A stretch of DNA of 64,000 bases from Vermamoeba vermiformis (Eukaryota), in the NCBI GenBank assembly GCA_045837725.1, contig JBEWZL010000266.1, forward strand, positions 558,001-622,000, written 5' to 3'. The position numbers were made by a program, and so were the translations under genes. Of this stretch, positions 9,567 through 64,000 are shown in pieces. Every line of letters starts with the position of its first letter. Position 1 is the stretch's first letter. Under the pieces are notes generated by a model. It made no database searches, was not told where the DNA came from, and worked only from the letters and a program-made list of their open reading frames with translations.

Positions 9567-9773
9567 TCTTGGCACAATGATGGAATTAAGGTACGGCGAT
9601 AATTTTAAAAAATCATACGAGTATCTAATATTGTCACCTTATATAGAATATCCTGTAAAAATCAAGCTTGAATTATTTTAAATTCAATTCGAAAATTCCG
9701 TCAAATCCAGTCCCACTTCATCTTGGTAAGTGTTCTGATAGTATTTATCCATTTGCCACGAACATTATAAATT

Positions 9774-11243
9774 ATGTCTACTAATTTTATTATTAAATTA
9801 TTAGTATTGAAGACTTTCTCGCACTGCACTTGGAAAGAGTGGCGATTTCTGCGCCAATCCAACAACGAACCAGTATATGAGCATCAAATACGAGAGTGTC
9901 AAAAACAATTGATTAAAGACTATGCTAGCCGTCCTCTCCGTGCTACTCATGGAGCTTATTTCCCTCTGCATTCGTTTTTTCAGCGGATCTTGGATTGGAA
10001 ACTCGGCGAGCACCACTTAGCCCTAATGCCGACCAGTGGAGATGAGCTGCACATCAAAATTTCGTGGGACGGGTACAGTCACTTCCACCAGAAGCTAGAA
10101 TCATGGTATATGGTGTTCTACGATGTGCTGCACAGCCAATCGTCGATGCACGCGCACTGTTTTGCAATCTCACGCATGTCTGAAAGCTCAGCCAACTTTC
10201 GCACAGTATGCACAGAAATTGACCTCAATGGGTTTGTCCAATGGTTGCAATCATTCAATATCAGCATCAATTCTCAGCTTTATCGAATCAACTTGATGAC
10301 ATCAGCGGATTGGATTGGCTATGTTGTCGAGCTTGGTGCACCCCGACCTGGCACTCGTTCATTAACAGATATAGTATGTCCCTCTTGTGGCTGTGACAAA
10401 CATTACCTACGTCATTTATGGTTAGAACATCCTTGGGCCATCAAACACCCGCAACTCTCAATCGTCAATTTTCCAAGTGCAGCGATTCAAACATTGCCCC
10501 TTCACAAGCGCCGCTATGATTGGATGCACGGATGCACATTATTATTACACCACTGCTTGATGAATATATACTTGGATTTTAGTCCACGGACTGCCCAGAA
10601 GGGTGTATTCTACAAGTTCGTCGAGAAATTTCGATAAAAGTGGTCCGTCAAGAATTTGCTCGAGCCTATTGGAATGAAGAAGTGGTGGACCAGTGATTGG
10701 ATCCAGCACTTTGAAGAGATATTCAGCAGCCACCCAGATCAAAACAGCATAGCATGGAGCGATGGAAATTCTTGGATCTGTTCAATTTACCAAATGTGGA
10801 CTTTGCTTGTCGATTCTTGCAGAGTCTATTATGAATTTGCATACACCCGAGATCCAAATCAAGAGAACTTCATTCCTCTTTATTATGCCCGTCATGCAAT
10901 CTGCTCAATCTTTGCATTCAAGAAGTGGTGCCTGGATCCAACCACTCATTTCATGCTAAATGAAGCTATCATCTACGCTATTCAAGACAATGGTGCTTAT
11001 CAAACTCTACAAGAGAGTGTCGAGCATGCCAACCATGATGTAAAGGAAGATTGCCGATGCACTTCAGCACGTGATTTGACAGAAGCTTTGAACCACCAAG
11101 AGCTCGAGCGACGGTTGATGGAATTGAATTATTATACAGCCCCAAGCAAGCTAGATTCAGACATTACAATCAATCATAGTTCAACAATAGCATTTGCAAA
11201 ATACACTCCCCTAGCATACAGTGTTGTGTCATTCCAGGACTGA
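9774..11243 (+). pseudogene. RAG1/Transib-like DDE transposase (~489 aa if read through) with one in-frame TAA at 10635-10637
   Basis: ORFs 9774-10637 and 10656-11243 are in the same frame. Motifs are KISWDG (D 10068), SQSS..HCFAISRMSES, SADW (D 10308), CPSC, DWMH and THFMLNE...QESVEHAN (E 11022). The His-to-Glu spacing of 25 aa equals RAG1 H937-E962. Confidence 0.85.
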
Positions 11244-11443: not shown

Positions 11444-13480
11444 TTACAACTTTACTTTTGAGGTAGTGTCAGGTGCGTACAAAGTAATAAATAATACAGC
11501 TAAGTAACTGATCGCGAAATCGACTGCCGCTTTTTTGTTCCATTGTCGAATTGTTGTCGACAACGCTTCCAAGTTCTGCAATGACACCATGAATGCATTA
11601 TGGACCATCATGATGACTCCTAGCATCAGATATAATCCGGTGTTGTACGCTAAGACCGTAAATATTTTTCCGGATCTGATGACTTTCACATTCAAGTTCC
11701 AATCGAGCATAAATATTACTAGTAGTGACGAGAAAACTATTATGTGCTTAGCATAGCGATGATTTTTGTTGTATAAATCGAGTACCATGAAGAAATAACC
11801 AATGCATCCAAGAGCGGATCCGAACAAAAATCCGAGCTCCCATGTACCATAGTTATAATAAAGCACCAAGAACGATGCGAATACTGATCCTGCTACCAAG
11901 AACACTCTTCGACGCGGTCGATCAATGGTGTTATAATTATTAATTCGATATTGATCGAAAAGTAATCCAATCATCACCAACACCAAAGATAGCACTGAAA
12001 TAACCGCAAAGATTAAATTGACCCAGTAATGGACTGACGAATTCAACTTCCAATAGTCGTTGAGCAAGCACGGTATAAATAATGCTCCCATAATGTTAAA
12101 TAGTGATCGATCCAAAGACAACCCTACAAAAAAATTAAATTAATACCATATTGTCATTTGTATTCTTATATTACCGATTATGCGGTAAATAAACAAAAAT
12201 AATTTTCAATTGCAGAATTTTTATTAAAAACGGATCATGAAACGTACCTAACCAGGGTGATTTTTCGTTGATATAACGAACTCGATGAATTTTTGTAAAG
12301 CCGTACGACTGCAGATTCATTTCAGCCAAGTCTACGAAGAACTCGCAGTCAGCGTTGTGTTTGAAGGTGAAGTACGGAGGCATCAGTTTTTTGCGCACTG
12401 AAAAGCCGAGAATGTAGTCGTCACGGTCAGGGATTTTGTTGTTGATTGGTTCAAAGACCCATTCGTCCTTCAAACTTGGCAGCGTTTTGGCACGAAATTT
12501 CACCAACCACCTGTAAAAAAAACATTCAAGTTAAACCTTAAGAACGCCTACACGTGATAGTCTCGAAATATATTATGTCATTACTCGTAGCAATAAAATA
12601 TATAATAATTAAGGATAAAAAATAAAAGAAACTAATGTTAATCAAAAATTTTCGTACTTATGCATTGGATGCGGCATTTTTCTATCGAGCGGAATATCTA
12701 GTGCTTTTTGAATGTACTGCGCGGTATTAAAATCAACATCGATCAATTTCTTGCCAAGTTTTCGCGCCAAAAGTTGATCTTGGTGCTTCCATTCCGGATC
12801 GTACGATTCCTGCCATAAAATTAAATATTAATACGTAGTTAACTATTAAACATCAATTGCTATTATGGATGCATTGTTTAAGACACGTACGGGATATTCA
12901 AGCCAATTTAATTTTTCCAAGAGTAATTCGCGGCGATTGTAGTTCCAGTTTTCTAATAATTCGTACGGATCTATCCTCCAAGTAGTACTATATATGGAAA
13001 TTTAATATATAAATTGAATTAACCTCTTAGGAATTCGAGCGATCCGGATCTAGTATCAGCAGCTACTTACTCGAAAGTGAAGAAGCGATTGCGGAACTGC
13101 TCGCTTGATGTGATATACCGCCAGTATTTATTGACATTAGAGCACTTAAGAAGCGATTCATAATCCAGGTTGAAGAAGATGTGCTCGAGAATTTCCTGAA
13201 CGAAAAATATTTGCTTTAATTACGCACGAAAAAATTGGCTAACAATTTGCTGTTAATTAAGTAGCTTCAAGTAACCAAAACATTGGTGTATTAATTTTTT
13301 TAAAATTGGTAAGACCAAATTTAAATTATTGATCTGCAACCAAAGACCTACCGGAGGCAAAACTTGATCAATCAACCCATCTGATGGATATGCTGGTCTT
13401 TTGATTTGTGCTACTATTCGTCCAATCAGCTTTGTCACGAATAACGCTGTAATTCCCAAGATCAACGACAACGTCCACAT
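11444..13480 (-). CDS. Membrane-anchored F-box protein with C-terminal multi-TM domain, paralog 1
   Basis: MWTLSLILGITALFV (TM), then YPSDGLIDQVLPP/EILEHIFFNLDYESLLKCSNVNKYW (F-box-like), a soluble domain (LLARKLGKKLIDVDFN, WLVKFR) and about 6 hydrophobic helices. Confidence 0.8.
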
Positions 13481-16237: not shown

Positions 16238-16668
16238 TGTATATTAATGAATGCCATTCAGTCCTCGTAGTTAATATAAAAAACTTTCTATCTGAGTTTT
16301 TTAACAAAATTCCGTCGCTTCCCTCGATGAAATTTGACAGCCAAACGTTTATTTTGACGGGCAAACTTTGTACAACCACTCGCTGACTATTATGCGGTAA
16401 GGTAGCAATATTAAGCGATTATTCTCGAAAATTACCTTGCGCCGACATTTACAACCCAGCGTCGGATCGGTATGGCTAGATCCAGATAAATTTCCAGCTG
16501 GCTTATCTAATTGCTGTAACGAAGTATAAACAATATTAAGGGCTATTGGTGTATCGCATACAAATTGGTGGCGTCGGATCTCCACCAAATAGAGTGTTCA
16601 CAACAAAAATTCAAGCTCCGTCCAATAGAAGCCTGAATTTTATTTCTGCTTCGTTCGCTTTCATAGAA

Positions 16669-18583
16669 TTAAATCGCCAGTTTTGCCGACGTTTCGGGTG
16701 CCGCTAAAGTGATGTACACTAAGCTTGCCATGCCGAAAAGGCAATAGGTCTTCATAGATGTTTTATCCAAAGTACGGAACATATTTTTGACGAACGGCTC
16801 GGAGTTGACGAATGATTCATGAATCCCCATGACTATAATTAGCAGCGCTCCAAATAATAAGTATAATAGCAAATTATATCCAAACGTTGCAAAAATTTGT
16901 CGGGATCCGATAATCAGTCTCCAATCGATTGTCAGTAGGACCAGTATTGATGATAGTCCAATGAAATACTTCGCATATTGATGATTTTTGATAACCAAGT
17001 CCTGGAGCAGTAGGAAGTAAATCAAGATGAAATAAATACATCCGCACAAAAATGCAATCTCCAACGCCCAATTGTAGAAGTATAATACGGGCAATAATAC
17101 TGCCAGCGATATTGCCATTAGAGACGATCCACGGCGTCCGTTTTGTTTTCGGTGTTGTTTGAATGCACTGAGTGTAACGATTCCTGTTAAACCAACTGTG
17201 CTACCAACGATTATAGTAGCGAATACTAAATGGATCCAATATTTCGTTGACGGATTTAGCTGCCAGTAATCAACGAGCAGACAAGGCGCGAAGAGTCCGC
17301 AACCAATGTTGAACAACATGTAATCTAAGACAAATGAGTAACGGTTTAAAAGTCGATATTAATATAACGCTATTATAATAATAGATATTATTATTAGTAA
17401 TTATTATGGATAAAAAGGAGGTTTGAGCTAATTTTTGCAAAATTTTATACCATTATTTTATAATTAGTCACGGAACTTACCGAGCCACGGCGACTTGTCG
17501 TTGATATACCTAATTTGGTATACTTTTGAGAATCGTGACGAGTACTGTTTGACGTCAGCCAAGTCAACAATGAGCTCACACTCAACGTTGGTTCTAAAAG
17601 CGATGTTCTTGGGAATACTTCGTCGTTCGATCTCTAAAAATCTCGACCCCTTTTCAGTGCTGAAACGCCAATGATTGTCGGAATATGTGTTAGGCTTGCA
17701 ACGAAATTTCACCAGCCACCTGGTAAAAACGTTCTTAATAAAATAAACCGTAGAAAGCGGATTTGAAATTTGAAATTTACATAGACGATGGAGGCCCTTG
17801 ACTCTCAAGTGGTATATTTAGTGCTTCTGCAATATATATAGCGCTGTTGAAATCAACGTCAACGAGTTTCTTGCCGAGTTTTCGCGCCAAAAGTTGATCG
17901 TGGAGCTTCCATTCTGGATCGTACGATTTCTGCCGTACTTAGTTAGTATCCATTAGTAATTAAGGAATCCTTTTGATTTACACTAAAAATAAATATTATA
18001 AAGCTTACGTTGTATTCGAGCCAGTTTAAACTTTTAGGATCAAAGGAACGACGGTTGTGATTCCAATTCTTTAATAATTCGTGCGGATCTATCCTCCAAG
18101 TTTTGCTAAAAATGAAAAAATCAACATTAAGCAAATGCAACGTTCCAACAAAAGAGATCTAATCCGAATCGGACACTTACTCGGTGTTACACAGTCGATT
18201 TCGAAGCTGCTTGTCCGATGCAATGTATCGCCAATATTTATTAACACTATGGCACGTTATCAATGACTCATAGTCGGTATTGATGAAGATCTGCTCCAGT
18301 ATTTCCTAAAAAGATTTTAACTTCAGTTCGAAGGCACCACAAAATATATTAATATTAATTATCATAATTAATGAGGTAATAAAATTCAGGAGATGTAGAA
18401 TCCATTTAAAATATTAATTTAAAAATTAAATTGGACGAACCAATCACAAAGACCTACTGGAGGGAGAACCTGATCAATTAATGCTTCTGATGGATAGACC
18501 GCCGGCTTTGTCCGTACAGAGCTCTGTATTATCGTAGTCATAACGAACGCAATAACACACAAAATCAACGCCAATGTCCACAT
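16669..18583 (-). CDS. Membrane-anchored F-box protein with C-terminal multi-TM domain, paralog 2
   Basis: MWTLALILCVIAFV...YPSEALIDQVLPP, with the same exon layout and motifs as paralog 1. The C-terminal TM exon ends ..AAPETSAKLAI. Confidence 0.8.
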
Positions 18584-18788
18584 CCGATTGAAATTAGTGA
18601 AGCTACTCGATTATATTGTAAAACTATTCGTTAGTTCATGAGTGTATTTTAATCATAAAGATTCCATTAAAAGAATTTTCGGGCGGGTTGAAGAAACCAC
18701 TGTGGTCCGCAAAAATCCATTCTTTTTTTATTTTCGAAACACAAACCCAACAATTCTGACGCTGCATTGTAACCTTGCACGATTGTCT

Positions 18789-20719
18789 ATGCTGCGAATT
18801 CTTTCTTTCCCAAAGGCGAAAGATCTTTGTTCTGTTGTAGTGGACTTGTTGGCTCTACGCAAACCGGGCAATAGACAATTTGGTACTAGGTACGTCATTT
18901 TACCTGCTTTAATTCACTATAATTAGGTTTTATAACTTACAAACAATTGTCATACAGGTCTAACATTTCTCGTTCTAGATCTCCAACGCAGAAACCAAGG
19001 GATTTACGCACCACAAGATCAGTTTCTAGTAAATTATTTCGTATTTTAATTTAAAACTAATATTATAGCAGCCTTATTGTGCAATAATAGTTTAATTGGT
19101 CTGAGTTCGCTCAAGCCACTTTTCCTTTATCAATGCTACTCGGCCAAAGCTGCAAATGAAGATGATTCAATCAAAATAAACTACAAAACAAGGAAACGTA
19201 CGTTATGTATTCAAAGGCCAAAAAAAAAAATCATTTGCAGACAATTTGTAATCATTGAGTAATTTTGCTTTCGTTAGCTCTCAGATGGACTGAAACAGAT
19301 GTAATTGAGTGGGCAAAGTCAGAGCTTCAATTTTCTAATGAAGATCTTGCTGCCCTTAAATGTTGTTGTTCTCCACTGGATGGTAGCCACTTGTTGAAAA
19401 CCTCAATACAAGACCTTGTTGAGGCAGGAGTTGCTGGTGGTTTGGCTGGACAACTGCTGGATGAACTCATGATAGCAAATGCACCTGCAATCTGTGAACT
19501 TTTGCCACGTGATGCTGAAGAGTTTCAGTACTTAACTAATGAAGAGAGAATGAGAGCAAGCATCAACACCTTCAAGCCCCTGCCTCAAATTGGGCACTTT
19601 GCACCTGTGAAAGGCTATACTAGTTCAACACACATCTTCATCACAGAAGAGCAATATAAGGTTTGGAAAATGTACTTTGACAACAGCAATGCAAACTCCA
19701 CAAAGTTACTTGTACCTTCTGGCCCATACAGAATTGGCAAATCTGGCATTGGGTATCTGGTTGCTCTAACTGCTTATCTTTTAAAGAAACCACTGTTTTA
19801 TTATGTAAGTTACAACTTAAGCAACCTTTTACTCATTGAGTTTAAGCCAAACTGCAGCAAAGTGATAACAAAGAAAAACATGGAAGAAGTGCTACTTCTA
19901 TGGAACAAAGATCTTATGGATACAAATCCAGATCTAACAGCAGCTCTTACAACTCTGCAAATTGATGAAACAACTGGTGCCTCTGCATTTTGGTCTGCTT
20001 TCACAGGAATACCTGGAGCTGTAATCATATTTGATGAGCACAATGAGTTGTACAGGATGCAAGAATACTCTAAAGCATGGTACAGCATTTACACATCCTT
20101 TCAGACATTTCAAGTAAGGCCATTCAAAGGTGCTAAAGTGTTAACTAATTGCTTCAACCAGGCAGCAAACTTTGTGTCATTCATTGGTTCAGCACACTCA
20201 AAACTTCCTGATGGATACAGAAACAGTGCAATTTACTTGCAGCCTGAACATTTGAGAAGTAAAAATTTTATTAAAATTTAATTTTTTATTTAGCCATTGA
20301 GTGATTTCTTGTGGGAAAAACTGCCAGGAAAAACTCAAGACAACAAATTGAGGAAGTTATATTCAGCTGTTGGAGGAGTCTATCATCTTCTTTTGGAGCT
20401 GCATGAGCATATGAAAAGAGGACTCTCATTTGACAGTTTTCTTATTTCTCTGAAAACAACTTATTCCAATCGCTTGGAGCAGTCAGAAAAAGAATTTCTT
20501 GGGCATGATAAGGAATATTTCTTAGCCTTCTTGAAGTCCATTGCCAACCACAATGCACATTTCATCACACTGGAGGCCAAAGAAGCCTCAGTAATGTATT
20601 ATGATTGTGGAATGGTGTATATCAAATGTAACTCAGTCTTTCCTGTTAACGATACAGCTCTTGCTGTAATCAAGGCCAAAGCCAAAGGAGCAACTGTTTT
20701 GATTGACAGCACCCTTTAA
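18789..20719 (+). CDS. SAM-like domain + P-loop NTPase (Crinkler/STAND-like), 5' end uncertain
   Basis: SAM-like WTETDVIEWAK...LDGSHLL..SIQDLVEAGV, Walker A GPYRIGKS, Walker B IIFDEHNEL and GSAHS. Putative introns at about 19805-19846, 20113-20161 and 20259-20293. The core from about 19278 is well supported; upstream exons are tentative. Confidence 0.65.
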
Positions 20720-20764
20720 TTCCATTATAGCCATGTTATTCTACATTCTATTTACATTAGTGTG

Positions 20765-22556
20765 CTATTTCAGCACTTTTTGCATAGATTCAGGTGCAAA
20801 TAAAGTGATGAATGGAACAGTTGCAAGAAAAAATCGAACATAATCTTTGGCTACTTGCATCTTCCATGGAACTGTGTTTTGTGTTGGCTGCAGCCAATCT
20901 ATAACACCATGATAAATTGCAAAAAGTAAGCCAAAAAGCAAATATAATGTAGTGTTGTAGAGTAGAGTATAATAGATTTTTCCTGATCCAATTGCTCTTA
21001 CCACCAGTTTCCAATCAAGTGTTAATATCACTAGCAGGGCTGAAATTATTGCTACGTGCTTTGCATAGGGATGATTCTTGGCACGTAAGTCGTCAATTGT
21101 AAAATAGTATGCAACACAGCGAATGACACATCCAAGTAAAAATCCAATTTCCAGCATCCAATTGTAGAAATAGCACAATGCCAATACGAGTGTTATCAAC
21201 ATGAATAGAATATCTGCACGCCTTCTGACTTGTTGTGCGTGTCCATCCAAGAGATTCACAACGCCAGCGAATACTATCCCACCAGTAACAAGCAGAGCGA
21301 CGACCAAATTGATCCAGAAATGGAGTGAAGAATTCAATTGCCAATAATCAGCCAGTAGACACGGTGAAAACAATCCCACGCCAATGTTAATTAAGGAATA
21401 GTCCCATGGCAGTCCTGCAAACAAAAATTAGAACCAAGGAGTTGATAGGAACTCCGTACCTAACCATCCAAGGTTTTTCTTATTCAGATATCGCAGTCGA
21501 TGGACCTTCTGAAACTGTTCAGAACTCACGTCGGTCAAATCAACGATGAGCTCGCATTCAGCGTCGTGTTCAAAGGTGATGTTGTTTGGTATTGCGTGTC
21601 GTTCTATTATCAGTTCCACTTCTTCAATCCAATATGCGCCTTTGTGAATTGAATCAAAAAACCACTTCGAGGCATCGTAGCGCTGCGTTTTGCAGCGAAA
21701 TTTTGCGAGCCACCTGAAAGTTTTGCATTAGCGATTAATGTGGACGAAATTAAACTTACTTCGTGTTAGGAGGTTGCAAAGCTTCATCGAGTGAGACGTC
21801 CAATGCCGTTCTGATGTATTTAGCGCTGTTCAAATCGACATCGACAAGTTTCTTGCCGAGCCTTCGCGCCAAAAGTCGGTCTTGATGATGCCATTCTGGT
21901 TTGTAGTTTTCCTTTACAATTTTATAAATATTTAATATGATGTAACCCTATATGATTGGCTCTATAAGTCTTATTCTAAAAAGACTTACCGGATAATCAA
22001 GCCACGTTAATTGTGTAAGATCAAATTCGCGATAATAATTGTAGTTCCAGTTTTCTAATAACTCGTGCGGATCTGGTCTCGAAATGTTGCTTTTTTGAAG
22101 TATTAGAGGGACGTGAAATACCATGGGATTCTTACCTGTTCTGGCAAACTTGATTTCGCAGTTTCTTGTTTGAGCTAAGATAATTCCAGTATTTATTGAC
22201 CTGATTGCACGCTATAAGTGCCTCATAGTCCAAATTGACGAAGATCTGCTCGATTATTTCCTGATCCAAAAATTCATTTCGTTAGAAATGCACTTAAAAA
22301 TCGGAGATAATTTAAAACTAACAGAATAGCTAGATTTAATTCTATGGTTGGTCAATTCGATTTTTCAAATGCAGTGGTGCCAATATAAAATTAATGTAAA
22401 TTTGGTTCCGCATTATAAATAACTTACCGACGGAAGAAGTTGGTCAATAAACGCTGTTGAAGGGTATACTGGCTTTTTTATGCTACTAAATACGCTTTCT
22501 ATTGCCTTTGTCACTATAAAACCGGCGATGCCTAAAAGTAAGACCAAAGTCCACAT
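20765..22556 (-). CDS. Membrane-anchored F-box protein with C-terminal multi-TM domain, paralog 3
   Basis: MWTLVLLLGIAGFIV...FIDQLLPS/EIIEQIFVNLDYEALIACNQVNKYW, with the same downstream exons as paralogs 1 and 2. Confidence 0.8.
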
Positions 22557-22687
22557 TAAGCTTATAATCGTGCCTACACTTGTTTTAATTCAACTTGTCA
22601 ATATATGAATGCGCACATAAGCGTGTTCATCAGGAAAAAATAATTTACGTAAAGAAATTTTTGAACATCCGTTTTTATTATTTTAAG

Positions 22688-24456
22688 TTATAACATAACA
22701 AGATTTGGCAATTGACTTAAATTTTCTGAACTAGCTCCTTTGAATGTCAAATAATGTAATTTCGTAAATAAAGGCAAATAAATGCCCGTCATACTCGTGC
22801 TTGTTTTTTGTATTTTGAGGCTAGAAAGGTTCGTCATCATTGCGAGATTTAGCAGTTCCTTATCATCGCTGAGCTCATATAGATCCAAATAATTTAAATT
22901 CGTCAATGCTGTCAAGTAATTAATCGCGTCGCTCGAAACGGCAGTCAGATCCAAGTGCATTAACTTAGTAAGATTCTTCAAATATGACATTTTCCGATAA
23001 GTCTTGTCTTCCTCTTCGTCACTAACAAGCGATAGATGCGTCAAATTTGTTAAACAGCCAAATCCTTCGAAGGCGGCTGCGCAGATCTGTAGATCCATCT
23101 TTTCCAAGTTTGTCAACGGAGATAGATTGACCGGCATTGCTGTCGTTGTCACTTGTCCATAAAGTAATGAGCGTAATTTCGTTAGTTTTGGCAAGTACGG
23201 CAACAAGAAGCTGTCATCTTGGTCAAACATTCCATAAAAGCCTAAATTGGTCAAGTTGGTCAGCACAAGCACGTGATGATCGCAACTAGTGTTCATTATT
23301 GACAATTCGTGAATAGATCCGAGTCGAGACAGGTACTGCCAGTCCACTTTATCATGCAATGACACTCCAATCAATAGCGTTATTTTACTCGACGTGATAT
23401 GTTTGAGAATTGGATTCTCTCGCTCTTCCGGGCCCATTATTCCGCCGTCTAACCACAGCCGCTCTAACCCAGTGAGACGCGACATAAACTCCATGTTCTT
23501 CACGACTTTGAGTTCTCCGAGGTCTTTGAGCTGCGGCAAATAAGCGAACATTTGTTGATCTCGTTCAGTGAATGTTTTTCGCTCGAGCAACGTCAATCGC
23601 GAACAATTTTCTGCGTCAGCGATCGGAATGCTAGAACGGAGTGATTCGAGAGCTGTCAAATGCCTCAATGATAGTGATCTGTCTGCTGCATAATTTCGAT
23701 TGTTGGCTACAATGAACTCGAATTTCTTTAAGCGCCGAAGTCTGTACAAATCTGCGTCGGTCCAGTTAGCGACGAAGCTGTGATCTACTCTGAGCCAAGT
23801 GAGCTTTGAATGGGCCTCTGTAATGCTCTCGAAAGGATTGTCGATGGAGGTAAATGACTGCATGAGTAACTCTCTGAGATTCGTCAATGTTGAAATGACA
23901 CCTGTCAAGTCGCGCCAGAGTGCTTTTTCGTTCACGCTGAATCGGATATTCAATGTCTCTATTTTCGTTAACTTCTGCCAAACACGATATGACGCCTCTT
24001 GCATAATATTGTAAGAAAGGAACTTCAAGTTTGTCAGGCGGGTGAAGCTCCAAAGCAATTCTGTGGTAACGCCGTCGATCCAACGAGCATCGAAGCTCGT
24101 CAAATTTGTTAAACGAGTTAACTGCTCTACTATGTCTGACAAATTTCTCATGACATTCTTCTTGAAGCTGATCGATATTGGCCTTTCATACTTCTCGAAT
24201 CTGTCTCCGATCTGCTTCCACTCCGATTTTTTTGTTAAATATAGCGTAAAATGATTATAATCAATCAAATTAAACCATAGTAAGCTCGCTAATCTAAGTT
24301 GCCGCTTTTCTTTGTCCGCTAAGTGAAAAATAACTAATTGCTTGATTTCTATCGGCAGATCTTCCTAATGAATAAATATTACCACCATTTTTGTAAATTA
24401 ATACTTGCATAATTTTTGGAATTATTTGACGCATTGTTTTTGCAAGATCTTACCAT
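22688..24456 (-). CDS. F-box + leucine-rich-repeat protein
   Basis: Probable ATG-only first exon, then EDLPIEIKQLVIFHL..LRLASLLW (F-box) and many LTNLxxL repeats in a single long exon. Confidence 0.85.
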
Positions 24457-24589
24457 TCTTGAGTTTACGTCCTGCCGCGGACTAAAGTTTATACAAAGGC
24501 CCAGTATTGATTTTCAATTAGCAATAGTTCATAGTAAAATATTGAGGTGTTGAAACAACAAATTTACTAATAAATAACTTCGCAACTAA

Positions 24590-48160: not shown

Positions 48161-50293
48161 ATGGAGAAAGATCAAGAACGCCCACCTCAGCAAATTATAA
48201 CTGGTAATAATAACACATTCATCACTTCTAACGCACCAGCTGCTGATTCTCTTCGTCAGACGTACATATTTGGAATGAATTGGCTACTACTGGAATCCAT
48301 CCGGCTCCTCGTCATGGTAAGTCCCTTTAACAGGCAAATTAATTTTAAATTCAATTTCACCATCTCCTTTCTATAAGCGAAATTAGCCTCATTTAATTGA
48401 CCAAACTATATTATAAAATTTACCTGATTTTTTTATGCAGTGCACAACTGTTACATGCGACAAGATAAAATGATTGTTTTCGGCGGTTACACGGACGGTT
48501 CTACTTACCTGAAAGACATTTACGAATATGATTTTGGTAGGACACTACATATTAATATGCATTTAAACTAATTTTTTGGTTGAAGAACGTAAACGGTGGC
48601 GGAATATCAAAGCACTAAAAGGAGGTCAAAACATTGTTGGCAAGCATTCAGCCGCGTACGTTATCGCTATATTAGCGCCATGATGTAGACTAACACTACG
48701 TAGTATGGTTATTCACAACGATAAGATGTATGTCTTCGCTGGGGTCAAGCATCTCGCGGTCAAAACGAACGAGCTAATCGAATTCGACTTTGGTAAGCTA
48801 TCAAATTACTATAAATGGTATCTAAATACCCTGAAATAGAAAAGTTTACTTGGCGCGAAGTTGAACAAAAAGGCGATATACCGGCTGAGCGTTGGGGGTA
48901 AGTTTTCAATCATGCACGTGGTGGATCCTAACCTCGATACCCTCCGCAGTCACACAGCAGTAATGTACAACGGAGAAATGATCGTATTCGGAGGATTCGG
49001 AAGCTCGTTCATGAACGACATTCACGCGTACAATTTCGAAACGGAGACGTGGCGAAGAATATTCGCTAATGGCCGACAACCTAAACCGCGTCACCTTCAC
49101 ACAGCCGTGGTGTATAAAGATAGTACGTTAGTAGAAAACTGCTTTATTTGCTATTCTAACGGCCAAATTTAAGCAATGATTATCTGCGGTGGTTACGCGG
49201 GAAGTATCACTCTTGCAGATCTTTGGGAATATGATTTTAGTAAGTTAAACAATTGTTACATTGTAATCGCTAATATGAGTGTTGTAGAGGACAACAGTTG
49301 GACGCACTTAGACGAGTACAACGAGGCCACAAACAGACGAGGTCACAGTGCAGTTGTGTACAAGAACAAAATGATCGTGTTCGGCGGTGCCGCTGACTCT
49401 CAGAGTGTTAATACCGTGTACCAATGGCATCTAGGTAAGATAAAAGCTCCAACTACCGCAGCTAATACAATTTTCTTCTCAGAACGAAAGAAATGGAAAA
49501 AAATAGAAGTTTACGGTCCTGAACCTAGTAAGACTTGAGTTTCAACGAAAAAATCTTGGTTTAATCATTTTTGTAGCTGTTAGACATTTCCACACCGCGG
49601 TTTTGCACGAAGACTCGATGTACATCTTTGGCGGCATTTTCAAAAGCAGCAATATGAACGACATTCACGAATTCCCCTTAAGTAAGTCATTTTATTGAAT
49701 TAATATCCTTGCGTGTGGATTTGCTTACTCTGGCACGCTAGAGCGAAAAGGAATCTCGGATAAACCAACAGGAGCTTTTGTGGATCTGTCCAAATTACTG
49801 GCGGACAAGAAGTATTGCGACGTGACTTTCATACTCGAAGACGGCACTACATTTCAAGCGCACAAAAACATCCTCGTTTGTCGCAGCGAACACTTCAAAG
49901 CGATGCTAGAAGGAGGACTTAGAGAATCCGGACAAAATATGATAAGAGTGCCTGGTGTCAGAGAACCCGTTTTTAAAGCAATTATGCAGTTCATATATAC
50001 AGATACAGTTACAGTTACCGACGATATTGCCGTGGATCTGTTCATCACGAGCGACAAATTTTTATTACCAAAGTTGAAGTGCCTAGTTGAAGATGCATTG
50101 CTTCGAGGTAATTTAATAAGAATGAAAGTATATTAGTACTAATCCTATTGCAGCAATCGACTCAGAAAATCTGCCGTCGTTGATGGAGCTCGCAACACTT
50201 TACTCCGCGCCAACACTGAAACTAGCTTGTGAGATGTTCACAAAGGGCAAACAACGTAAAAAGGAACGCAAGAATAATCGTCCCTTGGAATAA
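48161..50293 (+). CDS. Kelch-repeat + BTB/POZ protein (LZTR1-like)
   Basis: Repeated HTAVxY..MIVFGG kelch units and BTB CDVTFILEDGTTFQAHKNILVCRSEHF. Confidence 0.88.
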
Positions 50294-61812: not shown

Positions 61813-64000
61813 ATGTGTTTAGGAGGAAGAGTTCACGGCCGATGCTGCGACGGACCTAAGGTTATCAAGCCTCAAGTAACCGTTCCACTCATCGGTGCAT
61901 CTTCAAAAGTCACTGTTATCGACTTTGTAGCTCAAGTAGAGCTAAAACAACGATATGAGAATCAAGTAAGTACACTATTTCATAGCAATATCGCTTAATG
62001 ATGCTCAATTTGGCGATGAGTTTTTTACCTACGATTTTTAAACTACGGATGTAGGCTCAGTTTCTTAATGATCTTACTATAGGACTCATTTCCCATCGAG
62101 GCAACTTATGAATTTCCACTGCCCGAAGGAGCCGCTGTAACGGCGTTCATAATTGAGGTGGACGGTAAAACAATCCACAGCAAAATTAAAGAAAAAGAAG
62201 AAGCCAAAGAAATCTTCGACGACGCTATTGCCGAGGGTCATGGTAAGTCAGATTTAATATCCGAAAAATATTCAATGCAATCTAAAAATAAATCACGGAT
62301 GTGGCTTACGGTTTATTTGTTTAGGCGCTTACTTGCTCGAAGAAAAAGAAGACAACTGGTTCACTACTTCAGTTGGAAACTTACCACCCGGCAAAGAAGT
62401 GTTGATCACCATTGTCTACGTTCAAGAACTCAAGTTCAACGCGGATGGCGTTTTAGAATTCGTTATGCCCACTACCAAGTTTGCCCCCAACGGTGTCGGT
62501 GCTACTGCTGCATTCACTAAGTCACAGACCAATACTTACGAGAAAGTTGTGCCTTACGGTGTTCAAGTAAGTGTGACAGAACGTACATCCGTTAATTTCT
62601 TTAAATTTAAATTACTTGCTTCGACAATATTAAATTTGATAATGCGACTAACGGCTGATATTGTAGATTAATGCCGAAGTTAGAATGCCCGTCAAGATGA
62701 AGAAATTGGCTTCAAGCTCACATCCGAGCACGGTCGTAGCGGACGGCTATCAAGGCGCGCAGACCGGTCAAGCACGCATTGTGCAGACTGACGGTGCACC
62801 GCTCACTGAACACTGGCAATTGCAAATTCAATTGGAACAACCTCACGAGCCCTTCGCTCGCGTGCAAAAGACGGACGAATCGACCGTGGCCATGGTGTCA
62901 TTTTATCCGCAAATGAAAGAAGACAAAGTTTTCACTGAAATCGTGTTCGTGGTCGACAGATCTGGTTCCATGGGCATCAGAGGAAAAATGCAGAAAGGTA
63001 ATGATTTTCACTTCTATGTTGTAGTAGCCGACGAGTATTAACGTAGTTCCTATCAATAGTCAAGGACACTTTGGACATCTTCTTGCGCTCGTTGCCTGAA
63101 GGCACCATGTTCAACATTGTCAGCTTCGGCACTTCGTTCAGCAAGTTGTTCGACAAGTCCGTCGAGTACAACGAAAAGAACTTCAACGCTGCCAACGCAC
63201 ACGTGCAATCGATGGCCGCGAACATGGGTGGCACGAACATCATCAACCCAATGAAATCAATTTTCAGTGAACCGTCCATTGATGGTGTTCCTCGTCAAAT
63301 CTTCCTGTTGACTGACGGTGAAGTCAACAACCGCGACGACTGCATCAACACCGTCAAGAAGTTCGCCAAGACCACGCGCGTCTTTACTTTTGGTATTGGT
63401 CAAGAGGCCGATCGCGAGCTCGTCAAGGGCATGGCGATCGCCGCTCAAGGCAACTACGAGATCATTCTCGACAACGACAACATGGACGACAAGGTGCTGC
63501 GGCAATTGAACCGTGCTTTGAAGCCTGCCTTCGTGGACATGAAGATCAACTGGGGTGAGTTGAACGAAGTCGTCGAACAAACGCCGTTCCACTGCCCGCC
63601 AATGTTCAGCGGCGGTCACATCATTTTCTACGGTGTGTTCCCTAAGAAGACCAAAGGCACACACGATATCTCGTTCAATGCCAAGACCCCCGAAGGACCT
63701 TTCAAGACCAAGATTTCGATCAACTTTGACGACCCAATCGAGGGCGAGTTTGTGACCAAACTAGCGGCCAAGTCATTGATCCGCGACTTGCAAGACAGTC
63801 GCAGCTATATGCACAGCGACAAGGGTGACTTGTTGTCAAAGTACAAGCAAAAACAAGTCGATGACAAGATCATTGAAATCTCGCTCAAACATCAAGTCAT
63901 GTCCAAGCTTACTGCGTTTGTCGCTGTGGAGAAGAGAAAAGAAGCGACTGTTGGCACAATGCAGCGCATTGATATGAAAGAGGGGTCGGTGTCCCCTCGA
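61813..64000 (+). CDS. VIT + von Willebrand factor A domain protein (VWA5A-like), 3' end outside the window
   Basis: VIT: FVAQVELKQRYEN..PIEATYEFPLPE..SVGNLPPG. vWA MIDAS: FVVDRSGSM, GGTNI, LLTDGEV and FTFGIG. The start codon is uncertain. Confidence 0.9.

Follow-up and report, generated by a model that had tools for sequence, protein, structure and literature searches.

The question raised by this locus is why about 95% of the CG steps have gone from some 1.8 kb of DNA that takes in a gene together with the end of the gene next to it. The whole stretch analysed here (the window, 64 kb of Vermamoeba vermiformis) holds 3039 CpG, with an observed-to-expected ratio (o/e) of 1.15. The CpG desert, which is bordered by its flanking CpGs and has no strand of its own, extends from 19273 to 21054 and contains 4 CpG in 1782 bp where about 76 (76.3) were expected (Poisson P of at most 4 given 76.3, 1e-27); its o/e is 0.06, whereas the window outside it has 1.18. 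On comparison with the other non-overlapping segments of 1782 bp (mean o/e 1.19, SD 0.15, minimum 0.74), it was found to lie about 7 SD lower, the outlier that a sequence-only reading of this DNA had led one to expect. That reading had also counted only four CpGs between 19281 and 21050 and none from about 19510 to 20470, with abundant TG and CA there and common CpG elsewhere; the recount gave exactly four (at 19508, 20471, 20650 and 20835), none from 19509 to 20470 and, over 19281–21050, a CpG o/e of 0.063, TpG of 1.49, CpA of 1.46 and a GC content of 0.38. The five longest gaps between CpGs in the window (963, 236, 220, 185 and 179 bp) all fall inside the desert, the next longest being 148 bp and the median 15 bp. 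The 272 bp immediately upstream (19001–19272) retain 7 CpG. Among the 57 open reading frames (ORFs) of at least 110 amino acids, an o/e below 0.7 was observed only for the pieces of the desert (0.05 and 0.12), an exon of the neighbouring gene P3 (0.56) and 10638–11240 (0.48).

The desert is not an assembly chimera. Contig pieces from a public DNA run (X1), which may be the sample from which the window was assembled, span its left and right edges (19168–19857 and 20636–21420) with 0 differences, and the left edge is spanned as well by a relative from a water metagenome (X4, 18760–19409). In this last piece, which is mostly intergenic but reaches ~140 nt into the desert gene, 37 of 637 letters differ and there are 15 gaps; within the desert, which X4 has in common, the identity is 97–98% (4 differences in 255 letters and 11 in 363). 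The depth of X1 is not raised in the desert (300–588, flanks 286–540) and its variant contigs point to haplotypes; hence, P0001, a 98%-identical relative of the desert protein located on a separate 1843-bp contig, probably represents another allele or a strain variant. An X1 joint from 17934 to 22038 was also recorded, the short side of which has just 37 letters and is out of register with the paralog alignment.

The base composition of the desert carries a deamination signature, namely a loss specific to CpG with an equal gain of TpG and CpA. TpG was counted 152 times against 113 expected and CpA 157 times against 116, symmetrically between the strands, and the joint surplus of about 80 matches the CpG deficit of about 72. 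The loss hit all NCG contexts, the survivors being two ACG and two TCG, and TpA is not elevated (0.62 versus 0.77). When 95% of the CpGs in the rest of the window were converted in silico to TpG or CpA, the mean distance of its 16-dinucleotide profile from that of the desert fell from 0.218 to 0.083. The codon usage (RSCU) of the desert coding sequence behaved similarly; its correlation with that of 14 native ORFs was 0.27 when these were unaltered and 0.88 after simulated CpG decay, while each native ORF compared with the others, likewise decayed, gave r of 0.43–0.86.

The desert gene lies on the plus strand in two parts. The first (19265–20245) would encode a weak SAM-like N-terminus (SAM_PNT, E 0.02, below the cut-off) followed by a P-loop NTPase with a Walker A motif, GPYRIGKS (19721–19744), and a Walker B-like FDEHNE; the codon at 19265 is TTG, at which position P0001 begins with Met. 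The second (20294–20719; 141 codons plus stop) matches residues 144–270 of the relative P0003. Between them, an AT-rich interruption of 48 nt (20246–20293) with the in-frame stops TAA (20279) and TAG (20291) occupies the place of 30 residues of P0003, and further X1 and X4 contigs break there. A simple intron over the two stops was considered and rejected, since the only GT..AG pair (20259–20293, 35 nt) would lose the frame. The nearest solved relative of the family profile is the mitoribosomal protein DAP3/mS29 (PDB 6yw5, E 3.3e-7), and the Pfam families DAP3 and nSTAND3 were each matched by 2 of 13 family members. As judged from its Walker A (GxxxxGK[ST]) and Walker B motifs and from this profile similarity, the predicted product is a DAP3/mS29-like (STAND-related) P-loop NTPase. 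The earlier designation as a Crinkler-like gene was not borne out: no Crinkler Pfam domain was found at E ≤ 0.1, and searches by regular expression for LFLAK, LFLA and HVLV, after the LxLFLAK and HVLVxxP motifs of the N-terminal Crinkler header, were empty. The gene is single-copy, its protein has no Pfam family of its own, and the family is rare and patchy: a search of 1.84 billion representatives gave 21 matches at E ≤ 0.001, of which 6 are short and involve bacterial YDG-repeat proteins. A metagenome scan with the desert protein gave 102 pattern matches and 0 relatives, and a scan of viral contigs with the family alignment gave 50 pattern matches and 0 confirmed relatives. As to a C-terminal module in common with Crinkler/RHS-type NTPases, the neighbours proposed by a protein language model (among them NACHT/DAP3/IstB-like clusters and trypanosome RHS proteins) all scored 0.82–0.88, which is below 0.9 and makes them leads only; the AlphaFold2 model of the first ORF was too poor for a fold search (mean pLDDT 53.8).

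Comparison with the relatives suggests that CpG decay is still running at this gene. Of nine amino-acid differences from P0001 over 327 aligned residues, two are CpG to TpG/CpA changes with the window in the derived state (binomial P 0.002, calculated on the basis that the aligned part holds only 2 CpG). One of them appears to have struck the Walker A glycine, which is kept in 11 of 11 relatives covering the motif and is replaced in the window by Arg (19730), the codon context changing from C-GGA to C-AGA, that is, from CpG to CpA. The share of CpG-type changes in such protein comparisons (2 of 9 for the desert gene, 13 of 73 for a second CpG-depleted gene described below) is not clearly above that of a CpG-rich control LRR gene (3 of 22). 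The NTPase gene seems to have lost its function in the window allele, and further CpG transitions account for at least part of this.

The desert continues beyond the NTPase gene. After a CpG-free spacer of 45 bp between the convergent stop codons (20720–20764), it enters P3, an F-box/transmembrane gene on the minus strand (F-box at 22135–22281; PF12937, E 6.9e-8, above the cut-off), of which P1 and P2 are tandem paralogs. The P3 tail (20765–21052; the last 285 coding nt plus stop) contains a single CpG, in an Arg codon CGA at 20835. On codon-aligned comparison of the last ~95 codons, P1, P2 and P3 were found to have 14, 16 and 1 CpG, respectively (o/e 1.27, 1.34 and 0.11), a deficit in P3 with P = 5e-6 (at most 1 given 15). 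In the remainder of the last exon (21053–21427 in P3) the counts are 18, 21 and 13; for P3 this corresponds to an o/e of 0.81 and a possible shoulder that is not significant (P 0.08). The last exons of P1 (11444–12139) and P2 (16669–17358), also on the minus strand, have o/e values of 1.29 and 1.34. Thus, a spill-over of the depletion by about 300 bp into the 3' end of P3, with the paralogs CpG-rich in the same region, was upheld. The codon pair that had been quoted in its support is present (GCA CCC GAA in P2, GCA CCT GAA in P3), but P1 also has CCT, so this single site gives no direction of change. With an identity of only ~41%, the three paralogs allow little to be learned from polarising their CpG to TpG changes; where P1 or P2 has a CpG, the P3 tail has TpG or CpA at 11 of 29 sites versus 5 of 31 in the reciprocal controls, a borderline bias (P 0.05), and the upstream part of P3 itself is no different (9 of 34, P 0.24).

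The codons in which CpGs persisted suggest that loss proceeded under constraint. Positions 1–2 of Arg codons hold three of the four surviving CpGs, versus 21% of native CpGs (P 0.03), and the Arg codons of the desert are 10 AGR and 2 CGN, while 75% of those in native ORFs are CGN. No TGA stop was seen in the desert where about 2.6 were expected (P 0.075). The Arg-codon survivors and the absence of TGA stops suggest a slow decay under purifying selection, signs of which are present for both proteins, the NTPase and P3, while their CpGs decayed. The lower divergence of the X4 relative inside the desert than in the piece at its left edge is in keeping with this.

A second and milder case was observed at 9771–11243 on the plus strand, in a gene convergent with P1 whose o/e is 0.89 in the 5' part and 0.48 in the 3' part. 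The o/e is 0.47–0.89 in this gene and in its ortholog from a related species (L001/L002; 79% nucleotide identity), with flanks at 0.9–1.5. Between the two, transitions were found at 44 of 131 CpG sites and at 117 of 591 other C/G sites (P 7e-4); no significant difference was seen for a control gene next to it (35 of 130 versus 90 of 363). The depletion, limited to the gene, is conserved in the related species, with CpG sites changing faster. The single in-frame stop of this gene, TAA at 10635, corresponds to a Lys codon of the ortholog. This, and the use of TAA as terminator by the paralog ORFs, led to the rejection of a variant genetic code.

It is proposed that the desert is the mutational scar of long-standing local CpG methylation, i.e., of an island of 5-methylcytosine (5mC) eroded by deamination, and from the sequence evidence a probability of about 0.6 was assigned to this reading. 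Some 1.8 kb of native single-copy DNA would have been densely CpG-methylated in the germ line over a long time, in a domain starting within ~70 bp of the NTPase start codon and ending 335 bp beyond its stop, inside P3. Spontaneous deamination of 5mC, the presumed cause, would then have turned ~95% of the CpGs of the domain into TpG or CpA. The domain may have begun on the NTPase gene and spread to P3 for want of a promoter between the convergent pair, and its left border may have been set by the divergent promoter region shared with P2 (18.4–19.26 kb). The mark is of a known kind, here in unusually clean form. The sequence-only reading had further taken the footprint to be one of genome defence, for which no support was found; the usual triggers of methylation are absent at the target, with no terminal repeats found, no viral relatives, no raised X1 depth and no foreign codon usage. 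This absence, like the CpGs kept just upstream, counts against the methylation proposed.

Other origins of the desert have to be weighed against this. RIP-like mutation, a repeat-triggered burst of C to T changes at the CpGs of a duplicated NTPase gene that leaked a few hundred bp, is brought to mind by the sharp edges and short spill-over, since RIP leakage has sharp edges and a short reach into flanking DNA, as well as by the inactivating changes of the window allele and by P0001 on its own contig. However, the X1 depth and the probable status of P0001 as an allele or strain variant speak against a duplication, and for the adjoining LRR gene a counterpart of 95% identity came from a similar source. 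The loss fell on every NCG context without a rise of TpA, and the X4 relative shares the desert. The absence of TGA stops, the recoding of Arg to AGR and the survivors in constrained Arg codons point to slow decay under selection. A duplicated target, context-specific C to T change and frequent nonsense mutations, by which RIP is recognised, were not found at the desert, and such a burst is quite unlikely. Import of the NTPase gene from a CpG-poor donor (a methylated eukaryote or a virus), its composition being inherited, would suit the rarity and patchiness of the family and the missing Pfam family, but would leave the CpG loss in the tail of the native P3 unexplained. The desert codon usage agrees more closely with that of decayed native genes than most native genes agree among themselves, which makes a foreign donor unlikely, no viral relatives were found, and at the nearby gene 9771–11243 the CpGs have decayed in place, a feature also present in the related species. 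The earlier judgement that import alone would not account for the spill-over is shared, and this origin is regarded as very unlikely.

Gene-body methylation of the animal or plant type, tied to active transcription of the NTPase gene, would make the desert a transcription unit whose 3' UTR runs antisense into P3. This would agree with the retention of upstream CpGs, with a desert that begins near the start codon and ends past the stop, with the purifying selection on the NTPase and with the depletion of the gene at 9771–11243 chiefly toward its 3' end. In animals and plants, however, such methylation marks many broadly expressed housekeeping genes and usually leaves an o/e far above 0.06; here only one or two genes among the 57 ORFs are depleted, none recognisably housekeeping, and the o/e of the desert is far too low. 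Furthermore, the sole AATAAA downstream of the stop lies at 20799, about 250 bp before the right edge, two RNA runs (X17 and X19) are near-empty at the locus, and, in the available text of PMC12344493, the protists studied are reported to lack gene-body methylation; this explanation is considered unlikely. Least probable of all, and hardly to be expected, is that selection rather than mutation removed the CpGs, for example to escape a nuclease or RNA sensor directed at CpG. The deficit is matched by a gain of TpG and CpA, the desert spans two opposite-strand genes and their spacer, and the retained CpGs are the non-synonymous ones, the opposite of what would be predicted.

If the methylation reading is followed further, it may be, though this is rather doubtful, that a functional single-copy NTPase gene of the STAND/DAP3-like (death/immunity) type was held under constitutive, heritable CpG methylation within fixed borders, so that 95% of its CpGs were erased with the protein under purifying selection. 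In that event, 5mC would serve to keep a costly conflict gene switched off at this one locus over the long term, in a protist genome that is otherwise unmethylated, and the borders would be passed on epigenetically, with neither repeats nor transcription setting them. The RNA runs, whose strain and growth conditions may differ, placed only 20 (X17) and 10 (X19) reads, mostly 90–95% alike and lying only partly on the stretch; depth is near zero over 16284–24500, and the emptiness is uninformative on silencing of the NTPase gene because CpG-normal neighbours are equally empty. Should 5mC be confirmed at the desert, targeted CpG methylation of an unstudied microbial eukaryote would be readable from sequence, and such a mark could persist on one gene-sized domain for very long and damage a neighbouring native gene by spreading. 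Methylated, silenced or conflict-related genes could then be found cheaply, by scanning for CpG deserts, before a methylome is at hand. With its clean borders, the locus is well suited to studying how a methylation domain is started and stopped.

In vertebrates, methylated DNA has a CpG deficit, an excess of TpG and CpA, a shift of Arg to AGR codons and CpGs that survive at constrained sites, and the depletion is genome-wide with unmethylated islands. The desert shows the same four features, yet the arrangement is inverted, since here the island is what looks methylated and the genome around it is rich in CpG; the depletion is also deeper (o/e 0.06). It resembles the leakage of RIP in Neurospora in its sharp domain and short spill-over into adjacent sequence, but differs in lacking a duplication and a CpA to TpA signature and in its preserved reading frame. 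In the available text of PMC12344493, in which the phrase "CpG depletion" occurs 0 times, sparse repressive CpG methylation is described in protists whose genomes are for the most part unmethylated; it lies densely over a small number of gene-sized or kb-sized regions with silent genes. The desert is like the methylated regions reported there for protists such as Acanthamoeba castellanii, with one gene in ~64 kb bearing such a mark, although what is seen here is a mutational footprint and not 5mC, nothing marks its target as viral or as a transposon, and its upstream region escaped, whereas methylation in Acanthamoeba includes promoters (PMC12344493). In Cryptococcus neoformans, CG methylation patterns are copied faithfully by Dnmt5 and have been kept by selection for millions of years, according to the part of the preprint that was available (bioRxiv 10.1101/149385). 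There, the targets are centromeric and subtelomeric repeats rich in retrotransposons, while that of the desert is a single-copy protein-coding gene; stability of this kind is nevertheless what would be needed to erase 95% of the CpGs inside fixed borders.

The sequence-only reading had counted only four CpG dinucleotides in 19281-21050, and the recount gave exactly these (19508, 20471, 20650 and 20835), with none between 19509 and 20470. The CpG observed/expected ratio (o/e) of this interval is 0.063, that of TpG 1.49 and that of CpA 1.46; the whole 64-kb window holds 3039 CpG at an o/e of 1.15. Delimited by its flanking CpGs, the desert covers 19273-21054 (1782 bp) and is an outlier within the window, as other 1782-bp windows have a mean o/e of 1.19 (SD 0.15, minimum 0.74). 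With 76 CpG expected, the probability of finding at most 4 is about 1e-27. The desert contains the window's five longest inter-CpG gaps, the next longest being 148 bp and the median 15 bp. An assembly chimera, a possibility raised earlier, is ruled out by contig pieces of the public DNA run X1 (19168-19857 and 20636-21420), which bridge both edges with 0 differences, X1 being possibly the source sample of the window. The water-metagenome relative X4 (95-99% alike) has the same arrangement over 18760-24119, desert included, and the desert as such is confirmed.

The plus-strand desert gene consists of two ORF pieces that share a reading frame (19259-20281 and 20294-20719), both of which are found in one protein in the relative P0003 (residues 4-113 and 144-270, respectively). 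At E<=0.001, 21 proteins among 1.84 billion representatives matched the family, six of them being short matches to bacterial YDG-repeat proteins; the real relatives have in common the motifs VPSGP[HY]G[IV]GKS, FDEHNEL and GSAHS...YLQP. Against the PDB, the family profile found mitoribosomal DAP3/mS29 (6yw5, E 3.3e-7), and Pfam DAP3, nSTAND3, NACHT and AAA_16 each matched single family members only. Language-model neighbours (NACHT/DAP3/IstB-like clusters and trypanosome RHS proteins) serve as leads only, because every score was below 0.9, and the N-terminus matched SAM_PNT only weakly, at a sub-threshold score. These profiles support identifying the product as a member of a rare family of DAP3/STAND-like P-loop NTPases. 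The label 'Crinkler-like' was not borne out, since Pfam and motif searches found no Crinkler domain or motif.

The window allele of this gene looks damaged. A protein 98% identical to its product, P0001, comes from a 1843-bp NCBI contig and is probably an allele or strain variant; its initial Met is TTG in the window and one of its Arg residues is Cys. The Walker A motif has Arg in the window versus Gly in 11 of the 11 relatives covering it. The Gly>Arg change corresponds to CpG>CpA and the Arg>Cys change to CpG>TpG, the window state being derived in both. Where P0003 has 30 residues, the window has an AT-rich stretch of 48 nt that contains two in-frame stops, and further X1 and X4 contigs break exactly at this place.

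The last 285 coding nt of the convergent minus-strand gene P3 also lie in the desert, as does a 45-bp spacer. P3 belongs to three tandem F-box/TM paralogs on the minus strand (P1, 11444-13300; P2, 16669-18400; P3, 20765-22400). Its N-terminus is an F-box (PF12937, E 6.9e-8), and no Pfam family matched its C-terminal multi-pass membrane region; this architecture is unusual, with about 41% identity among the three copies. P1 (last exon 11444-12139) and P2 (last exon 16669-17358) share 41-42% protein identity with P3. In a codon alignment, the part aligned to the P3 tail contains 14 CpG in P1, 16 in P2 and 1 in P3, the remainder of the same exon 18, 21 and 13, respectively. The spill-over proposed earlier is therefore real, and a weak shoulder of CpG loss may continue past the P3 tail (P 0.08).

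A junction of 17934 with 22038 occurs in one X1 contig, the short side of which has only 37 letters; the 4103 bp left out comprise the desert gene, the 5' part of P2 and most of P3. Either a deletion haplotype or a graph artefact arising between the paralogs could explain it. Alternative X1 contigs at 18859-19165 and elsewhere, with many single-base differences and about half depth, suggest that the sequenced material contains two diverged haplotypes.

The composition of the desert bears on whether its gene was imported from a CpG-poor donor. The surplus of TpG and CpA (39 and 41, about 80) matches the CpG deficit of about 72 and shows strand symmetry, and TpA is not raised. When 95% of CpGs outside the desert were decayed in silico, the mean distance of the dinucleotide profile from that of the desert fell from 0.218 to 0.083. 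The correlation of desert codon usage with 14 native ORFs rose from 0.27 to 0.88 after these had been decayed, above the 0.43-0.86 of native ORFs against the rest. The desert DNA thus looks native save for its CpG loss, and a donor is unnecessary; nor could one account for the loss in the P3 tail. Neither terminal repeats flanking the desert nor viral relatives of the protein family were found, and X1 depth over the desert is not raised; hence there is no sign of a mobile or repeated element.

Of the four surviving CpGs, three occupy Arg codon positions 1-2, which account for only 21% of native CpGs (P 0.03). No TGA stops have arisen versus about 2.6 expected under neutral decay (P 0.075), and desert Arg codons comprise 10 AGR and 2 CGN, native ORFs using 75% CGN. 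X4 diverges less from the window in the desert (4/255 and 11/363 letters) than in the piece 18760-19409 (37/637 plus 15 gaps), which is mainly upstream intergenic yet takes in about 140 nt at the start of the desert gene. These patterns point to gradual CpG loss with both proteins under purifying selection. A sudden RIP-like burst is disfavoured by the Arg-codon survivors, the absent TGA stops, the AGR bias and the low X4 divergence. Decay in the desert gene seems to be still under way: 2 of 9 amino-acid differences from P0001 lie at CpG sites within a stretch retaining only two CpGs (P 0.002).

The best reading is that a putative 5mC domain, long maintained on the NTPase gene, accounts for the desert; the earlier interpretation is partly supported. 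The domain would extend from the gene across the promoter-less junction into P3, and on the left the divergent promoter region that the gene and P2 have in common would halt it; 7 CpG survive there in 19001-19272. A variant in which methylation is coupled to transcription is less probable; the sole AATAAA downstream of the stop is at 20799, and the right edge lies about 250 bp beyond it.

The strongest indirect support for such putative local methylation comes from a milder case, the plus-strand gene 9771-11243, which is convergent with P1 and has an o/e of 0.89 in its 5' part and 0.48 in its 3' part; a Pfam scan gave no family match. Its counterparts on two metagenome contigs from a related species (L001, 497-1963; L002, 2458-3924; DNA 79% identical to the window) have an o/e of 0.47-0.57 throughout, with flanks at 0.9-1.5. 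The ortholog P0023 shows 87% protein identity and has Lys at the position of an in-frame TAA in the window copy (10635). In the alignment, transitions affected 44/131 CpG sites versus 117/591 other C/G sites (P 7e-4); the adjacent CpG-normal gene gave 35/130 versus 90/363, which is not significant. This excess and the conserved depletion thus indicate that gene-limited CpG hypermutability occurs in the lineage and is conserved between species. Protein-level CpG-type changes (13/73) did not clearly exceed those of a CpG-rich LRR control (3/22). Similarity to the related species stops at about 11430, where the F-box/TM cluster of the window begins. Downstream of this point the relative has minus-strand ORFs (L001 2154-3095) that by their motifs may be an SNM1/PSO2-type DNA cross-link repair gene; they are without counterpart in the window.

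Adjacent to the desert neighbourhood, a minus-strand LRR gene (22688-24364, one long ORF) combines an F-box-like start with leucine-rich repeats (PF23598). It is 95% identical to P0024, from a source similar to that of P0001; the next relatives are just 37% identical, a sign of fast divergence in the family. On the plus strand, 48840-50133 encodes Kelch repeats and then a BTB domain, and 62083-64000 a protein with VIT and von Willebrand A domains; most remaining window ORFs of at least 110 aa matched no Pfam family.

In a eukaryote that has not been studied in this respect, the desert may offer a very clean natural case of targeted methylation and a means of predicting it from sequence alone. 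The putative domain would match the sparse repressive methylation reported in Acanthamoeba and other protists (PMC12344493), and its stability recalls the Dnmt5-maintained methylation of Cryptococcus (10.1101/149385). Unlike those cases, the target here is not recognisably viral or transposon-derived, the region upstream was spared, and the CpG loss is unusually deep.
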